Positions 5,446 to 27,414 of a stretch of 64,000 nucleotides of DNA are shown piece after piece. Source of the DNA: Acidimicrobiia bacterium (GTDB lineage Bacteria > Acidobacteriota > Vicinamibacteria > Vicinamibacterales > UBA2999); NCBI GenBank assembly GCA_016871275.1, contig VFZG01000001.1, forward strand, positions 42,334-106,333, written 5' to 3'. Every line of letters starts with the position of its first letter. Positions within the stretch are counted from its first letter, which is position 1. Under the pieces are notes generated by a model. That model made no database searches and was not told the origin of the DNA. It was given only the letters and a program-made list of their open reading frames with translations. Both the position numbers and the translations under genes were made by a program.

Positions 5446-7194
5446 TCAGATCTCCATCACCACGGGCAACACCATCGGCCGCCGGCCCGTGCGCTTCTTC
5501 AGGAACTTGCGCAGTTCCACTCGAATCCGTTCCTTCATCAATCCAGGGTCGCCGCGCTGTTCCACGCTACAGTCGTCGATGGCGTTGGCCACGATGACGG
5601 CGCCCTCACTGAGCACGTCGGCCGTGCCCTCGTCGCTCACGAAACCGCGCGCCACCAATTCGGGCACGCCTTCGATCACGCCGCTGCGGGCGTTGATGGC
5701 CACCACCGGGACGATCAAGCCGTCCATCGAGAGATGGCGCCGGTCGCGCAGCACTTCGTCGCCCACTTCGCCGACCCGCGTGCCGTCGATCAATACCTTG
5801 CCGACGCGCGTCTTCTCCACGACCCGCCCGCCCTCGCCGTCGAAACGCATCACGTCGCCGTCTTCAGCGGTGATCACCTGCACCGCGGACGGCAGCCCGC
5901 GCGTCACGAACCTGGCCACTCGCGCATGCTGCGCCAACTGGCGATACTCGCCGTGGATCGGCACGAAGTACTTCGGGCGCACCAGCGACAGCACCAGCTT
6001 CAGCTCCTCTTCGGAGCCGTGGCCGGAGACGTGCACGTGCCTGGAGGATTCGGTAAGGATGTCCACGCCGCGCCGGGCGAGGTGATTCATCACCCGGCCG
6101 ATGGCCTTCTCGTTGCCGGGGATCGCCCGCGCCGAGATCACCACGCGATCGCCTTCCGTCAGCTGCACGTGCCGGTGATCGTCGATCGCGATCCTCGACA
6201 GCGCCGCGTTCGGCTCTCCCTGCGACCCGGTCGCGACGCACACCACGTCGCTGGCGGGGAAGTGCTGCACGTCGCTGTCCCTGATCACGACGCCGGCGGG
6301 CAGGTGCAGGAAGCCCAGGTCCTGCGCGATCCGTGAGTTCTCGATCATGCCGCGGCCGACGAAGGCGACCTTGCGATCGAACTGGGCCGCCAGATCGACA
6401 ACGATCTGCAGCCGATACAGGCTCGACGAGAACGTCGCGACGACGATCTTGCCCTGGCTGCTGGTGAAAATCTCCTCGAACGCGTCTTCGACGTCCGCCT
6501 CGGAGCCGGTGTAGCCGCGGCGGTCGATGTTGGTGCTGTCGCAGAACATCGCCAGCACGCCATCCGAGCCGAGCTGCGCGAAGCGGTGCAGGTCGAACGC
6601 CTGGCCGTCCAGCGGTGTCTGATCGACTTTGAAGTCGCCGGTGTGGAGCAGCACGCCCTGCGGCGTGCGCACCACCACCGCCACGCAGTCGGGCATGCTG
6701 TGCGTCACGCGCACGAACTCGATCGTGAACGGGCCGATGACAATCACCGAGCCGGGCGCGATCGCCACCGTCTTCGGCTCAAGCGCATGCTCTTCAAGTT
6801 TGTTGGCCACCATCGCCAGCGTGAGCGGGGTCCCGTACACTTCGCCGTCGAGATGCGGCAACAGGTAGGGCACGCCGCCGATGTGGTCTTCATGCGCGTG
6901 CGTCAGCACCAGCGCCTTGAGTTGTCCTTTACGGTTCTCCAGGTAGGCCAGGTCCGGCACGATCAGATCGACGCCCGGCAAGTCCGCCTCGGGGAACATC
7001 GCGCCCGCGTCGATGACGATAGTCGTTCCCTGACACGAGATCGCCATCATGTTCAGGCCGAACTCGCCAAGGCCGCCAAGCGGCACGACATCAACTGGAG
7101 GCGCACCGGCAACCACCGGCGCACCCGCGGACACACTCATACGAGATCCCAGCAGGGCGATTGAGCGCCCCGGGCGTACCTTCCAAGCAACCAT
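5446..7194 (-). CDS. rnj: Ribonuclease J (MBL/beta-CASP)
   Basis: VPLGGLGEFGLNM start region, HAHEDHIGG metallo-beta-lactamase motif, beta-CASP layout. The true start may be the internal ATG near 7140 (MSVSAG...). Confidence 0.9.
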   Translation of the reverse strand: MVAWKVRPGRSIALLGSRMSVSAGAPVVAGAPPVDVVPLGGLGEFGLNMMAISCQGTTIVIDAGAMFPEADLPGVDLIVPDLAYLENRKGQLKALVLTHAHEDHIGGVPYLLPHLDGEVYGTPLTLAMVANKLEEHALEPKTVAIAPGSVIVIGPFTIEFVRVTHSMPDCVAVVVRTPQGVLLHTGDFKVDQTPLDGQAFDLHRFAQLGSDGVLAMFCDSTNIDRRGYTGSEADVEDAFEEIFTSSQGKIVVATFSSSLYRLQIVVDLAAQFDRKVAFVGRGMIENSRIAQDLGFLHLPAGVVIRDSDVQHFPASDVVCVATGSQGEPNAALSRIAIDDHRHVQLTEGDRVVISARAIPGNEKAIGRVMNHLARRGVDILTESSRHVHVSGHGSEEELKLVLSLVRPKYFVPIHGEYRQLAQHARVARFVTRGLPSAVQVITAEDGDVMRFDGEGGRVVEKTRVGKVLIDGTRVGEVGDEVLRDRRHLSMDGLIVPVVAINARSGVIEGVPELVARGFVSDEGTADVLSEGAVIVANAIDDCSVEQRGDPGLMKERIRVELRKFLKKRTGRRPMVLPVVMEI

Positions 7195-10408: not shown

Positions 10409-11017
10409 ATGCCGCATGAATCAGCCTTGGCGATCGCGCCGTGGACGCTCTGCGTGGTGACGCAAACACCGCTCGCCGAGCTGGATGACTCGGCGTTGGT
10501 CGCCGCGGCGCTCGACGGCAGGCGCGAGGCGTTCGACATCATCGTCGAGCGCCATCGGCGCAGCGTGTATCAGGTTTGTTACCGCTTCGTGAACAACCAT
10601 GAGGACGCCAGCGACCTGGCGCAGGACGCCTTCGTGCGCGCCTGGAAGGGACTGAGGAGTTTCAAGGGCCAGTCGGCGCTGTCGACGTGGCTCTATCGGA
10701 TTGCGGTCAATGTCAGCCTCAACAAAGTCAGCGCGAAGCGCGCGCCGACCGAGTCGATCGAAACGACCGACCAGTTCGAGGATGTCCGCATCGAGGGCGC
10801 ACCGCAGGCGATTCTTCGCAAAGAGCGGGCGGCGGCGGTCAGAAGGGCGATTGCCAGCCTGCCGGACAAACAGCGCGCCACGCTCATCCTGCGGACCTAT
10901 CACGACATGTCGCACCAGCAGATTGCCGAAGTCCTCGGCAGCAGCGTCGGCGCGGTGAAGGCCAACTTGTTTCACGCCCTCACGAACTTGAAGAAGATCC
11001 TGGGATCAGAACCATGA
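10409..11017 (+). CDS. ECF (group 4) RNA polymerase sigma factor, full length
   Basis: Region 2 (DLAQDAFVRAW...STWLYRIAVN) and region 4 (LPDKQRATLILRTYHDMSHQQIAEVLG) are both present. The start could also be GTG 10454/10457. Confidence 0.85.
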   Translation: MPHESALAIAPWTLCVVTQTPLAELDDSALVAAALDGRREAFDIIVERHRRSVYQVCYRFVNNHEDASDLAQDAFVRAWKGLRSFKGQSALSTWLYRIAVNVSLNKVSAKRAPTESIETTDQFEDVRIEGAPQAILRKERAAAVRRAIASLPDKQRATLILRTYHDMSHQQIAEVLGSSVGAVKANLFHALTNLKKILGSEP

Positions 11018-22713: not shown

Positions 22714-25260
22714 CTAGGCATGGACCGCGTGACCTTTCGCGAAACTCAACTCGTCTCCGGACACATCCACGGCGACCGTATCGCCTTCGCGGAACTCGCC
22801 TTCCAGCACCCGCAGCGCCAGCGGATCCAGCAACCGCCGCTGCAGGGCGCGCTTGAGCGGTCGCGCTCCGTACACCGGATCATACCCCTCGCGGACCAGG
22901 ACGTCCTTGGCCCGGTCGCTCAGCTCGACCGTGATCTTGCGATCCTCGAGCCGTGTCAGCAGCGCGCGCAGCTGGATCTCGATGATCTGCTTGATGTGCT
23001 CGCGCTCGAGCGAGTGGAAGAACACAATCTCGTCGATGCGGTTGATGAACTCCGGTCGGAAGTGTCCGCGCAGGGCGTCCTGGTCGCGCAGGTTGGACGT
23101 CATGATGATCGCGGCGTTGGTGAAGTCGACCACCCGGCCCTTGCCGTCGGTCAGACGTCCGTCATCGAGCAGCTGGAGCATGACGTTCAGCACCTCGGGA
23201 TGCGCCTTCTCGATTTCGTCGAACAGCACGACGGCGTACGGTCGCCGGCGAACCGCTTCGGTGAGTTGCCCCGCCTCGTCGTAGCCGACGTAGCCCGGCG
23301 GCGCACCGATCATGCGCGACACCGTGTGCTTCTCCTGGTATTCCGACATGTCAATCCGGATCATCGCCTGCTCATCGTCGAACAGAAACCCCGCGAGCGC
23401 GCGGGCGAGTTCCGTCTTGCCGACGCCGGTCGGACCAAGGAAGATGAAGCTGCCCAGCGGTCGATTCGGATCCTGCAGGCCGGCCCGCGCCCGGCGAATG
23501 GCGTTGGCGACCGCACCAATCGCGGCATCCTGTCCGACCACGCGGTGGTGCAGGCGCTCTTCCATCTTGAGGAGCTTCTGGATTTCACCTTCCATCAGCC
23601 GGCTCACGGGAATGCCCGTCCACTTACCGACGACTTCGGCAATGTCTTCTTCGTCGACTTCCTCCTTCAGCATGCTCTTGGTCCGCTGCAGCTCCTGGAG
23701 GCGAGCTTCCTGGTTCCTGATTTCCGCTTCGAGGGCGGGCACCTGGCCGTACTGCAACTCCGAGGCCTTGGCGTAGTCGCCGGCCCGCTGGGCCTGTTCG
23801 ACCTGGCGCTTGACCTGCTCGAGCTGCTGTTTGGTGTCCCGCGACTTCTGGATTGACGCCTTCTCCTGTTCCCAGTGCGAACGCAGGGCGGCCGACTGCT
23901 CCTTGAGGTCGGCGATCTCCTGTTCGAGCTTCTGCAGGCGATCGCGCGATGCCTCGTCCTTCTCCTTGCGCAGCGCTTCGCGCTCGATCTCGAGCTGCAT
24001 GGTGCGCCGCTGCGCCTCGTCGAGCTCCACCGGCAGCGAGTCGATCTCCATGCGCAGCTTCGAGGCCGCTTCGTCCATCAGGTCAATCGCCTTGTCAGGC
24101 AGGAAACGGTCGGAGATGTAGCGATGCGAGAGTACCGCGGCCGCCACCAGCGCGGCGTCTTTGAACGTCACGCCGTGATGAATCTCGTAGCGCTCGCGCA
24201 GTCCGCGCAGGATGCTGATCGTGTCTTCAACGCTCGGCTCGCCAACCGTCACCGGCTGAAAGCGCCGCTCCAGCGCCGCGTCCTTTTCGATGTGCTTCTG
24301 GTATTCGTTCAGCGTCGTCGCGCCGATGGTGTGCAGTTCGCCGCGCGCCAGCATCGGCTTGAGCATGTTGGACGCATCGAGCGAGCCTTCCGACGCGCCG
24401 GCACCCACCACCGTGTGCAGCTCGTCGATGAACAGCACGATCTGGCCGGCGGAGTCGACCACTTCCTTCAGCACCGCCTTGAGGCGGTCTTCGAACTCGC
24501 CGCGATACTTCGCGCCGGCGATCAGGGCACCCATGTCGAGCGTGACGATCTGCTTGTCCTTCAGCCCCTCGGGTACGTCGCCGCGAACGATGCGCTGGGC
24601 CAGCCCCTCGACGATGGCGGTCTTGCCGACGCCCGGTTCACCGATCAACACGGGATTGTTCTTGGTGCGGCGGGAGAGCACCTGGATGACGCGGCGGACT
24701 TGTTCGTCGCGCCCGATCACCGGATCGAGCTTGCCCCGGCGCGCCAGCTCAGTCAGATCGCGGCCGTACTTCTGCAGCGCCTCGTACTTGCCCTCCGGAT
24801 TCTGGTCGGTCACGCGCTGCGATCCGCGGACCGATGCCAGTGTCTCGAGGACGCGCTCGCGCGTCACCCCGCGCAGCTCGAGCAGGTCGAGCGCCGGCCA
24901 GCGCCCGGGTTCGGCCAGCAGGCCGAGCAGCAGGTGCTCGGTGCTGACGAACTCGTCCCGCATGCCCTTGGCTTCGGCCTGCGCCGCGTCGAGCACGACC
25001 CGCAGGCGAGGGGAGAGGGGCGGCTCCGAGCCGCCATGCGCCTTCGGCTGCCTGCCGAGTTGTTCGCGCATCGCCGTGGCGATATCCGTCGGCTGGCTGT
25101 TCATCTTGCGCAGCACGCTCGGCACCACCCCGTCCTGCTGCTCGGCGAGCGTCACGAGCAGATGCTCGGGCTCCACCTGGGCGTGACGCAGCTCCGACGC
25201 CAGCTGCGGTGACGCGACGACGGCTTCCTGCGCCTTTTCGGTGAACTTGTTGAGATTCAT
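22714..25260 (-). CDS. clpB: ATP-dependent chaperone ClpB
   Basis: Clp N-domain, two AAA+ modules ([16 protein letters not shown]) and a long coiled-coil middle domain; 848 aa. Confidence 0.97.
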
Positions 25261-25265
25261 GGTCT

Positions 25266-26270
25266 TCAGCTCTTCGCTTTGGTGTGTTGACTGCCGCGGA
25301 GCGCTTCATAATGCGCCCGCTCTTCCTCTGACAACTGCTTCGGAATATCGATTTCGATGCTGGCGTACAGATCACCTCGCTCGTCGAACTGACCGACGCT
25401 CGGCAACCCATGGCCGCGCAACCTGAAACGCTGGCCGCTTTGTGTCCCGGCCGGCAGCTTCAATCGCAGCGTCTTCTTCTCTAGTGTGACGACGTCCACT
25501 TCGCCGCCGAGCACGGCCGTCGTCACCGGGACGCGCGCCCTGGTGTACAGGTCGCGGCCCTTCACGCCGAACACCGGGTGCGGCTTCAACTGCACCCGCA
25601 AGTACAGGTCACCGCTCGGACCGGCGCCGGCCCCGCGTCCGCCTTCGCCGGCGACGCGCACGCGCGAGCCGTCGGTTACACCTGCGGGTATGCGCACCTC
25701 GACGCTGCGCGCGTGGCCGTCGTGGCGCAACTGCAGCCGCTGCACGCAGCCGCGCATCGCGTCCTCGAGGTCAAGCTCGAACGGATGCTCCACGTCCTGG
25801 CCCTTGCGGCTTCTCGGCCGCGCCCGGCCGCCGCGCGCGCCGGTGGGCTCCTCGGCGTCCATGCCGCCGAAGAACGTCTTGAAGAAATCCGAGAACGGGC
25901 TGTCGCCGCCGGCGCCGAACATGTCCTCCATCTGTTCCTGGGTCATGGTGCGAAAGCCGCCCTGCCTGCCCTGAGCGGGGTCGAAGGGCCCGCCGCCGTG
26001 CCACTGGCCGCCGAACGGATTCGCGCCCGGCGGCGCGTTTTCATAGGCTCGCCAGTTGGCGCCCAGCTCGTCGTATTTCTTCCGCTTCTGCGGATCGCTC
26101 AGGACCTCGTTGGCCTCGTTGACTTCCTTGAACTTCGCCTCGGCGCCCTTGTCACCCGGATTCACGTCAGGGTGGAACTTGCGGGCCAGCTTGCGAAAGG
26201 CCTGCTTGATGTCCTTGTCGGTGGCCGTCTTGGAGACGCCGAGCGTGGAGTAGTAGTCCTTGAAGTCCAC
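25266..26270 (-). CDS. J-domain co-chaperone without zinc-finger region (CbpA-type DnaJ)
   Basis: [32 protein letters not shown]-domain, G/F-rich linker, no CxxCxGxG repeats, and DnaJ C-terminal domains. Confidence 0.85.
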
Positions 26271-26271
26271 G

Positions 26272-26631
26272 TCAGGCCTCGTCGTCGAGATCCAGTCCGA
26301 GCATCGCCGCCAGGCGGTCCATCTCCCTCAGCAGCCGCCGGCGCGTGGCGTCGCGCTGCACCGCCGCGGGCTGGACCAGCGGACGGATCCGCTGCATCGC
26401 CTCGGCGACGGACAACAACTGCTGGACGCCGGCCAGATTGACCCCTGACTCATCGACCAGCCGCTTGATGAAGCGCAGCCGCTCGATCTCGTCGCGCGAG
26501 TAGAGCCGCATGCTGCCCACGGTGCGCGCCGGGCGCACCAGCCCGAGGCGCTCGTACTTCCGAAGCGTCTGCGGGTGCATCCCGAGGATCCGGGCCGCGT
26601 CCGAGATGAACATCAACTCCCAGGTTGACAC
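26272..26631 (-). CDS. hspR: HspR-type MerR-family heat-shock repressor
   Basis: [62 protein letters not shown] aligns closely with my recollection of Streptomyces HspR. The start is either GTG 26631 or ATG 26613, which is preceded by GGGAG. Confidence 0.85.
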
Positions 26632-26637
26632 GTTTCA

Positions 26638-26666
26638 AGGATACCAGTTGATACGATACGTATCAA
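26638..26666 (-). promoter_or_regulatory. Candidate sigma-70 promoter of the hspR operon
   Basis: On the gene strand: TTGATA (26666..26661), 17 nt, TATCCT (26643..26638). Confidence 0.45.
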
Positions 26667-26668
26667 CT
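26646..26668 (-). promoter_or_regulatory. HAIR-like operator (perfect inverted repeat)
   Basis: AGTTGATACG-ATA-CGTATCAACT, equivalently GTTGATA-N7-TATCAAC. Compare the HspR operator CTTGAGT-N7-ACTCAAG. Confidence 0.5.
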
Positions 26669-26727: not shown

Positions 26728-26973
26728 CTACTGGCCACTCTGCTGGCGGGTGGCGGGGACGGCCTTGATGAGTTCTTCGGGCATGGCCGGCATTTCGTCG
26801 CTCATCTCGTCGCAGGCGATCTTTCCGGCCTTGATGGCCACTTCGTACTGCACCATGTGGTGGTGGCAGTTCTTGCACTTGCCGAGGTGGAGCTCGAAGT
26901 GGGTGCGGGTCTCCACCGGGAGTTCACCGCTCACGTAGTCGTTCAGGAATTCGGCGAGTTCCCGGCATTTCAT
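26728..26973 (-). CDS. Soluble zinc-binding anti-sigma factor (ZAS, RsrA-like)
   Basis: 81 aa with no TM helix. C3 and H29-x3-C33-x2-C36 (HLGKCKNC). ATGA overlap with the upstream sigma ORF. Confidence 0.7.
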   Translation of the reverse strand: MKCRELAEFLNDYVSGELPVETRTHFELHLGKCKNCHHHMVQYEVAIKAGKIACDEMSDEMPAMPEELIKAVPATRQQSGQ

Positions 26974-27266
26974 GAGGCAGCACTCCCGAAGTGGCGGGCC
27001 AGCAGCGTCCGCAGCGCCTGACGGGCGCGATGCAGCCAGGTTGAGAGCTTGGCGTGGCCTTCACAGCGATCGAGGCTGCGAAACGCGCTCATGAACGCGT
27101 CCTGCACGACGTCGCGGGCGTCTTCCTCGGACCCGACGATACGACGCGCGACCGCCAGCAGCCGGCCGCCGCAGGCACGGACGACCTGCTCGACGGCGGC
27201 CTCGTCGCCGGCGCGCAACTGCCCGATGAGCGTTGCTTCATCGTCGACAGGAGTCGCACTGGCCAA
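26970..27266 (-). CDS. ECF sigma factor remnant: region 2 only (apparent in-frame internal deletion)
   Basis: 98 aa with a TTG start. Region 2 is present (EDARDVVQDAFMSAFRSL...LSTWLHR) and is fused directly to the C-terminal tail ARQALRTLLARHF. There is no region 4 HTH. Confidence 0.6.
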   Translation of the reverse strand: MASATPVDDEATLIGQLRAGDEAAVEQVVRACGGRLLAVARRIVGSEEDARDVVQDAFMSAFRSLDRCEGHAKLSTWLHRARQALRTLLARHFGSAAS

Positions 27267-27414
27267 CGATCGGGCCGATCACAGGGGCAGGGCCGAGCCG
27301 GCACTGCGGTCGCGGGATGGGCGGCGAGGCCCCGTTGCGCCCGGCAGGCCGATTGGTGACCATGCTGGCGAACGACCATACGTAATATGCTGGCCAGTCG
27401 TAGATCAGCTGCCC

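Follow-up and report, generated by a model that had tools for sequence, protein, structure and literature searches.

A deletion between short direct repeats probably left a fixed, decaying remnant of an ECF sigma factor gene and its zinc anti-sigma partner

On the minus strand of a 64,000-nucleotide stretch of contig VFZG01000001.1 (hereafter, the window), we examined a 98-residue open reading frame (ORF; 26970..27266) that encodes region 2 of a sigma factor of the extracytoplasmic function (ECF) type and overlaps the start of a gene for an 81-residue soluble zinc-binding anti-sigma (ZAS) protein. We consider this pair, with a probability of roughly 70%, to be a fixed, decaying sigma/anti-sigma remnant, an ordinary gene remnant produced by a deletion between short direct repeats. 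The ancestor would have been an ordinary two-domain ECF sigma gene (~201 aa) in a conserved neighborhood of sigma, soluble ZAS, and hspR-dnaJ-clpB genes. A RecA-independent short-homology deletion (replication slippage) would then have removed 309 bp between two in-phase 11-bp repeats, which owe their existence to a Leu-His-Arg motif shared by region 2.4 (sTWLHR) and region 4.2 (iRLHRAR). Lost with this interval were 103 codons that encoded the rest of region 2.4 as well as the linker and nearly the entire region-4 domain (sigma4); the reading frame, the stop codon, and the coupling to the anti-sigma gene through ATGA survived. Without sigma4 the fragment would be unable to read a -35 element, so that it could not act as a sigma factor; the anti-sigma would be left with no productive partner, and both genes would drift near neutrality, heading for loss.

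The sigma gene remnant was delimited from the ORF list, Pfam, and an orthologue alignment. It starts with a TTG codon and consists of a sigma2 domain (residues 1-80) followed by 18 residues from the extreme C-terminus of region 4.2 and then the stop codon. Pfam recognizes Sigma70_r2 (PF04542) over residues 29-90 (E 4.8e-13; 49.1 bits against a cutoff of 24), the best PDB matches of this part being region 2 of SigW, SigH, and sigma-E, and no region-4 model (PF08281 or PF04545) matches the remnant even at E≤1. Because sigma4 is absent, the remnant is not a member of the ECF (group IV) sigma-70 proteins, which are defined by a two-domain architecture. Its score against NCBIfam TIGR02937 (sigma70-ECF superfamily) is 40.7 bits, below the cutoff of 42.9, in keeping with the label “hypothetical protein” that NCBI gives to the identical protein MBM3806628.1 of a metagenome-assembled genome (MAG). 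By Pfam, the window's other ECF sigma (10409..11017; 202 aa) contains r2 as well as r4_2/r4, and it extends ~105 residues past STWLYR, vs. 18 residues from STWLHR to the C-terminus of the remnant. At the junction the protein reads ...STWLHR|ARQALRTLLARHFGSAAS, and this tail (26973..27026, minus strand) aligns to the end of ancestral region 4.2, ...RLHRARQALRSLLAPHFRSAVS, in the full-length orthologue P0031/L007; full-length relatives returned by protein search end in ...NATKIRLHRARQALRSLLAPHFRSAVS. An earlier interpretation made from the letters of the window alone (the sequence-only reading) had noted the stop 18 residues after STWLHR and about 100 further residues in the intact sigma, had taken the RARQALRTLL tail for the extreme end of region 4.2, and had concluded that region 3/4 was removed by a deletion; the residue counts, the orthologue alignment, and the Pfam check for r2 and r4 that it had proposed agree with it on each point.

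To size the deletion, we fetched the orthologous loci L007 (a 730-kb contig), L012, L013, and L014. DNA alignment with the full-length syntenic orthologues L007, L012, and L014 reveals that exactly 309 bp (103 codons) are missing from the window gene, a stretch that began late in region 2.4, spanned the linker, and took in nearly the whole of region 4.2. The deleted interval is bracketed in L007 and L012 by two perfect 11-bp direct repeats, GGCTGCATCGC, which lie 309 bp apart in the same codon phase; the first copy encodes (W)LHR of region 2.4 and the second (R)LHR of region 4.2. The window keeps a single copy (27027..27037, minus strand), made up of the last 2 nt of the Trp codon followed by Leu-His-Arg, and a tblastn search found no copy of the missing 103 aa elsewhere in the 64-kb window. 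These values match the sequence-only reading closely, which had postulated an in-frame deletion of ~0.25-0.3 kb between LHR-coding microhomologies with a junction near 27027 and had suggested aligning the orthologous locus to size it.

One retained repeat copy together with a lost interval is the classical signature of a short-homology (slippage) deletion, and spontaneous deletions between short direct repeats were classically described in Escherichia coli lacI. The present case resembles these in its perfect 11-bp flanking repeat, its single kept copy, and its size of a few hundred bp; it differs in that two conserved motifs belonging to a single gene impose the repeats, which share their codon phase, and in that the event recurs across lineages. 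With the repeats in phase, the deletion product is always in frame, and here the frame, the original stop, and the ATGA coupling were all preserved. The junction also carries a local peculiarity in strain L017, whose sequence at 6225-6473 (mapping to window 27022-27033) has four substitutions within 12 bp, changing CTGCATCGCGCC to CTGGACCGCGAT and giving WLDRDR, a patch that is unusually dense for a strain 99.06% identical to the window.

Within a species-level population whose members diverge by up to 1%, the deletion is fixed. The deletion allele, in the same gene context, occurs in at least 14 other assemblies or runs that are 99.06-100% identical to the window, including Logan assemblies of six different runs (L001-L006; 99.86-100%), a JGI contig (L016; 99.4%), a more diverged strain (L017 and L018; 99.06-99.10%), and six further contigs (L020-L025), one of them a 128.8-kb ENA MEGAHIT contig. 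The NCBI MAG protein MBM3806628.1 carries the same allele, and a protein search returned no full-length allele of >90% identity. The deletion is thus older than the ~1% strain divergence, and the split from the nearest of the sampled full-length orthologues lies much further back in time. The “fresh pseudogene” of the sequence-only reading holds insofar as the evidence leans to a pseudogene over a decoy, but the allele is not a single-assembly oddity, being fixed and overlain by later substitutions.

Such an allele could in principle be an artefact of sequencing or assembly, through a repeat that collapsed or a contig that is chimeric, and many “r2-only” relatives in the databases truly are artefacts, arising from contig ends, adaptor tails, or long-read frameshifts. 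However, the identical junction is present in those other assemblies across different runs and pipelines (Logan, JGI, ENA MEGAHIT, and NCBI MAG), the flanks of the deletion allele carry strain-level single-nucleotide polymorphisms, and an 11-bp repeat, far under assembler k-mer sizes, cannot collapse; we therefore reject this explanation, to which we attach a negligible probability. Four independent Logan contigs (L002, L004, L005, and L006) end at window position 26743, beside a segregating Q78K site (26742) in the anti-sigma gene; this shared end has the look of a branch that strain variation produced in the assembly graph, and not of a structural feature.

We then asked whether the remnant belongs to a family of naturally short proteins. 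Every one of the nearest relatives, which share 86-90% identity over sigma2, runs on as ...WLHRIVVNAAL and is of the full type. Dozens of r2-only matches raised the possibility of a conserved short family, which we discarded on reading them, since they proved to be contig-end fragments, sequences with adaptor or junk tails, or long-read frameshifts; L015, for instance, ends in Illumina adaptor sequence, and the noisy long-read or low-coverage contigs with a frameshifted sigma have DnaJ and ClpB split as well. These r2-only matches, too, all read ...WLHRIVVNAAL... at this point, the full-type sequence. Among the best 150 matches of a HMMER scan of 1.84 billion cluster representatives, the only junction-type sequences were P0001 (the window allele) and P0027. 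A degenerate DNA pattern of the junction had no true match in 185,579 species genomes, and in 241 million JGI records it occurred only in the window's own species. Two pattern matches were rejected, one lying in a normal region 4.2 (...VWLHRARQALR) of a Myxococcota sigma and the other in an unrelated acetyltransferase-like ORF. A 40-aa junction-centered peptide gave two candidates, neither useful, against an index of 5.8 billion proteins, the word index being too strict for short queries. These searches indicate that the remnant is not part of a conserved sigma2-only family. They also carry a caution for annotation, as nearly all other “Sigma70_r2-only” relatives in large protein collections are contig-end, adaptor, or long-read frameshift artefacts that could be mistaken for a short family.

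The full-length orthologues score best against the generic models PRK11922, SigM, and SigW, all under cutoff. The only sigma relatives with an organism name are from Gemmataceae (69% identity) and Planctomycetia (67%), and for the anti-sigma, the closest homologue that bears a name comes from Vicinamibacterales (80% identity); given these names, the NCBI label “Acidimicrobiia bacterium” for the source MAG (identical proteins MBM3806611-MBM3806628) looks doubtful.

We also asked whether the remnant could be half of a split two-subunit sigma of the Bacillus subtilis SigO-RsoA kind, whose sigma4-only half would be encoded at another site. Examples of ECF-like sigmas that distribute sigma2 and sigma4 over two polypeptides have been described (PMC7826278), and the remnant resembles RsoA as a small polypeptide carrying only sigma region 2. 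RsoA, however, is itself conserved and has a sigma4-bearing partner, while the remnant is not conserved, bears a clear deletion scar relative to full-length orthologues, and has no such partner in the window: tblastn queries consisting of the missing 103 aa or of a full-length orthologue found no sigma4-only ORF in the 64 kb, only the complete ECF sigma at 10409..11017. Its relatives are single full-length genes, and the short form is absent from the best 150 representatives except for P0027. We regard a split sigma as very improbable.

Outside the species of the window, the junction has nonetheless arisen elsewhere. P0019, from a Gemmataceae MAG, has the identical junction TGGCTGCACCGC|GCCCGCCAG, on a contig that stops 24 nt past it; P0037 and P0061, which are 92% identical to P0019, are full-type, so the P0019 junction is an independent and recent event. 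The same junction in P0027 (L008) sits among unrelated genes, and no ZAS gene lies downstream of it. From these comparisons, the junction has an independent origin in at least one, probably two, other lineages, and the WLHR/RLHR repeat pair thus seems to behave as a deletion hotspot built into this ECF group. The precise, always-in-frame loss of sigma4 would then be a recurrent mutational outcome of an in-phase repeat within one ECF sigma gene, and one that is easily overlooked, because junction alleles keep an open frame and operon coupling and so seem intact to gene callers. A different in-frame deletion is found in P0018 (L019 992-1731), which has lost ~37 residues of region 4 (...AETKA|TPNAVKVRLHR...); a 78-aa ZAS gene still overlaps its stop, which gives this ECF group a further type of sigma4 loss.

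Recurrence may have an alternative or additional cause in adaptive loss of function, whereby silencing the ECF regulon conferred a benefit for which the deletion was selected, leaving remnants that are now neutral; the molecular picture would be the same as for the short-repeat remnant proposed above, with another reason for fixation. Both the fixation of the deletion in every sampled strain and the independent region-4 losses in the same ECF group (P0019, P0027, and P0018/L019 with its ZAS gene still present) are compatible with selection; on the other hand, a mutational hotspot explains recurrence equally well, and the junction is very rare overall. We judge adaptive loss to be improbable. 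It is also conceivable, at long odds, that the WLHR/RLHR repeats provide a general, recurrent one-step route from a sigma factor to a stable sigma2-only protein co-translated with its anti-sigma, the product possibly being kept as a ZAS redox-sensor decoy or as a competitor for core RNA polymerase in some lineages, possibly including this one.

The anti-sigma gene (26728..26973, minus strand; class I anti-sigma domain) was characterized with Pfam, an alignment of 106 homologues, and an AlphaFold2 (AF2) model. Its start overlaps the sigma stop by 4 nt (ATGA; 26970..26973, minus strand), a translational coupling signal inherited from the intact operon; orthologues L007 and L012 have this overlap too. 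The protein passes Pfam zf-HC2 (PF13490) with 28.8 bits against a cutoff of 22.2 and retains all four zinc-ligand residues, C3, H29, C33, and C36 (H29-x3-C33-x2-C36). The family is typically 79 aa long and very conserved; the C3, H29, and C33 columns are invariant (106/106) and C36 nearly so (105/106). The C3-to-H29 spacing of 26 residues makes this a CHCC rather than an HHCC type and equals that of C11/H37 in RsrA, whose ligands are C11/H37/C41/C44 and whose Cys11 is required for disulfide sensing (PMC4960319). The AF2 model has four helices (H1 3-15, H2 20-32, H3 34-55, and H4 66-78) at moderate confidence (mean predicted local distance difference test score, pLDDT, 73). Helix 4 of class I anti-sigma domains binds sigma2 regions 2.1-2.2 (PMC7406223).

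These features resemble those of SigR-RsrA and SigH-RshA, group IV sigmas with a co-transcribed soluble ZAS protein, in that the remnant has a typical sigma2 coupled to a ~80-aa C-x25-H-x3-C-x2-C anti-sigma and its locus is reminiscent of theirs in its heat-shock neighbors (hspR-like merR, dnaJ, and clpB). The locus differs from these systems in that region 4 is wholly absent and the ZAS protein falls below the cutoff of the RsrA equivalog TIGR03988 (21.4 vs. 62.5 bits); a PDB profile search with the anti-sigma gave marginal matches to RslA (E 0.05) and RsrA (E 0.28). The ATGA coupling to an 81-aa ZAS protein, the C3/H29/C33/C36 ligands, and the RsrA-like spacing had all been described correctly in the sequence-only reading. 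Its further description of an “intact RsrA-like” anti-sigma stands for the zinc ligands, but not for the protein as a whole, which fails the RsrA equivalog threshold and carries private changes (Y39H and L73P) treated below.

To gauge constraint since the deletion, we turned to lineage-private changes and within-species polymorphism instead of pairwise comparisons. Pairwise ratios of non-synonymous to synonymous divergence (dN/dS) for the sigma2 part against its orthologues are 0.06-0.16, values that stem mainly from the long history before the deletion (dS 0.6-1.0) and are uninformative on the post-deletion period. On the window branch, sigma2 has acquired six private non-synonymous changes (A15G, F25V, Y32C, N60S, F68C, and N71H) and five synonymous ones; counts of private non-synonymous changes in the five orthologues are 0-5 per sequence, and most of those changes are conservative. 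Position 68 is Phe in 112 of 117 homologues and Cys in the window. The anti-sigma carries the private substitutions E38H, Y39H, T46A, and L73P, of which Y39H replaces a Tyr found in 106/106 homologues and L73P replaces a position that is L/M/I in 103/105 and lies in the middle of predicted helix 4 (AF2). The locus would provide a dated natural example of a ZAS anti-sigma orphaned by sigma loss, in which the zinc ligands are kept and positions in helices 3 and 4 drift.

Signals for expression differ as well. The sigma gene begins with TTG in the window, a state fixed in the population, and with ATG in each of the five orthologues examined, and a conserved -10-like TGTGATA(A/G/C), located 9-10 nt upstream of the start in the orthologues, reads TGTGATC in the window (27264-27290), likewise fixed. 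Apart from this -10-like element, no recognizable ECF-type autoregulated promoter is present upstream of the remnant. The TTG start and the TGTGATC variant may reflect decay of expression signals.

Polymorphism within the species was assessed in 15 sequences, with correction for two-nucleotide codon changes. The two genes together have eight non-synonymous and three synonymous segregating sites, compared with a neutral expectation for this ratio (N:S) of ~2.7-3.8. The non-synonymous variants are V25F, H79D, A81D, and L89P in sigma2 and F9Y, T22A, K48E, and Q78K in the anti-sigma; H79D alters the WLHR motif and F9Y alters an invariant Phe. The 8:3 ratio differs from that of the neighboring genes (31:48; Fisher p=0.038), and the density of non-synonymous variants is 14.7 per kb, vs. 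5.0 per kb in equally sampled neighbors (p=0.015). Private changes and polymorphism point in one direction, toward relaxed constraint on both genes; the numbers are small, and the evidence is suggestive, not proof.

Several observations weigh against a decaying remnant. The pairwise dN/dS of sigma2 is low, and the post-deletion excess of non-synonymous changes is small, ~2 above expectation. When the comparison of N:S is restricted to equally sampled neighbors (20:18), the difference from 8:3 is not significant (p=0.20). The ORF is still open and the anti-sigma retains its four zinc ligands, although these are weak arguments in a high-G+C genome and in a short gene. Finally, several structural considerations make a stable protein from the fragment plausible: AF2 predicts a four-helix, sigma2-like fold in which the last helix (74-96) runs continuously through the junction, at moderate confidence (pLDDT 70); isolated sigma2 domains of 95-106 aa have been solved (PDB 2MAP, 2MAO/4LUP, and 5OR5); and the acidic segment of sigma2.2 needed for contact with beta', a DAED-type motif (PMC8999054), is kept as EEDARD. 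The laboratory-made constructs represent the same domain at near-equal length and illustrate that such a fragment can fold stably; the natural remnant differs from them in its chimeric last helix and its conserved-core substitutions.

This structural evidence is relevant to the possibility that the remnant is a functional sigma2-only protein, co-translated with the ZAS protein and either titrating the anti-sigma as a decoy or competing for the beta' clamp helices of core RNA polymerase. Retention of the frame, the stop, and the ATGA coupling would suit such a role, as would the contact of class I helix 4 with sigma2 regions 2.1-2.2 and the fixation of the allele in all sampled strains. In contrast, there is no conserved short family; radical private changes fall in the conserved sigma2 core (F68C and Y32C), and a change in the WLHR motif itself (H79D) is segregating; a proline (L73P) sits in the middle of the very anti-sigma helix that would bind sigma2; and population N:S is near neutral in both genes. 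It is hard, moreover, to see what a decoy would be for when its anti-sigma has no sigma to regulate, and the window shows no second cognate sigma. Our literature search found no description of a natural ECF sigma without region 4 that acts as a decoy. Based on this balance, we consider a sigma2-only function unlikely, if less so than the adaptive and split-sigma alternatives; of the two options offered in the sequence-only reading, a pseudogene or a sigma2 decoy, the evidence leans to the former and disfavors the latter. As a short-repeat deletion remnant, the pair would in itself be a decaying regulator gene and its partner in an uncultured soil or freshwater bacterium.

The surrounding locus is shared in outline with the orthologues. 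The neighborhood in L007, L012, L013, and L014 comprises beta-lactamase, sigma, ZAS, MerR, DnaJ, and ClpB genes, and the window has the corresponding MerR/HspR-like (26272..26631), DnaJ (25266..26270), and ClpB (22714..25260) genes, all on the minus strand. A response-regulator gene lies between the beta-lactamase-family and sigma genes in L007 (4335-4784) and L013 (2404-2859) and is missing from the window (27267-27414) and from L012, and a TerC gene lies between ZAS and MerR in L012 and L013, where the window has none. Gene order thus suggests that the locus has been remodeled repeatedly.

Upstream of the MerR/HspR-like gene, a perfect 10-bp inverted repeat, AGTTGATACG-ata-CGTATCAACT, at window positions 26638-26668 overlaps the -35 element of a TG-extended, sigma70-like promoter (TTGATA-17-TATCCT). 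On the basis of these two elements, the heat-shock operon appears to have its own putative operator and promoter, which would make it independent of the dead ECF sigma. One arm of the inverted repeat is polymorphic in strain L017.

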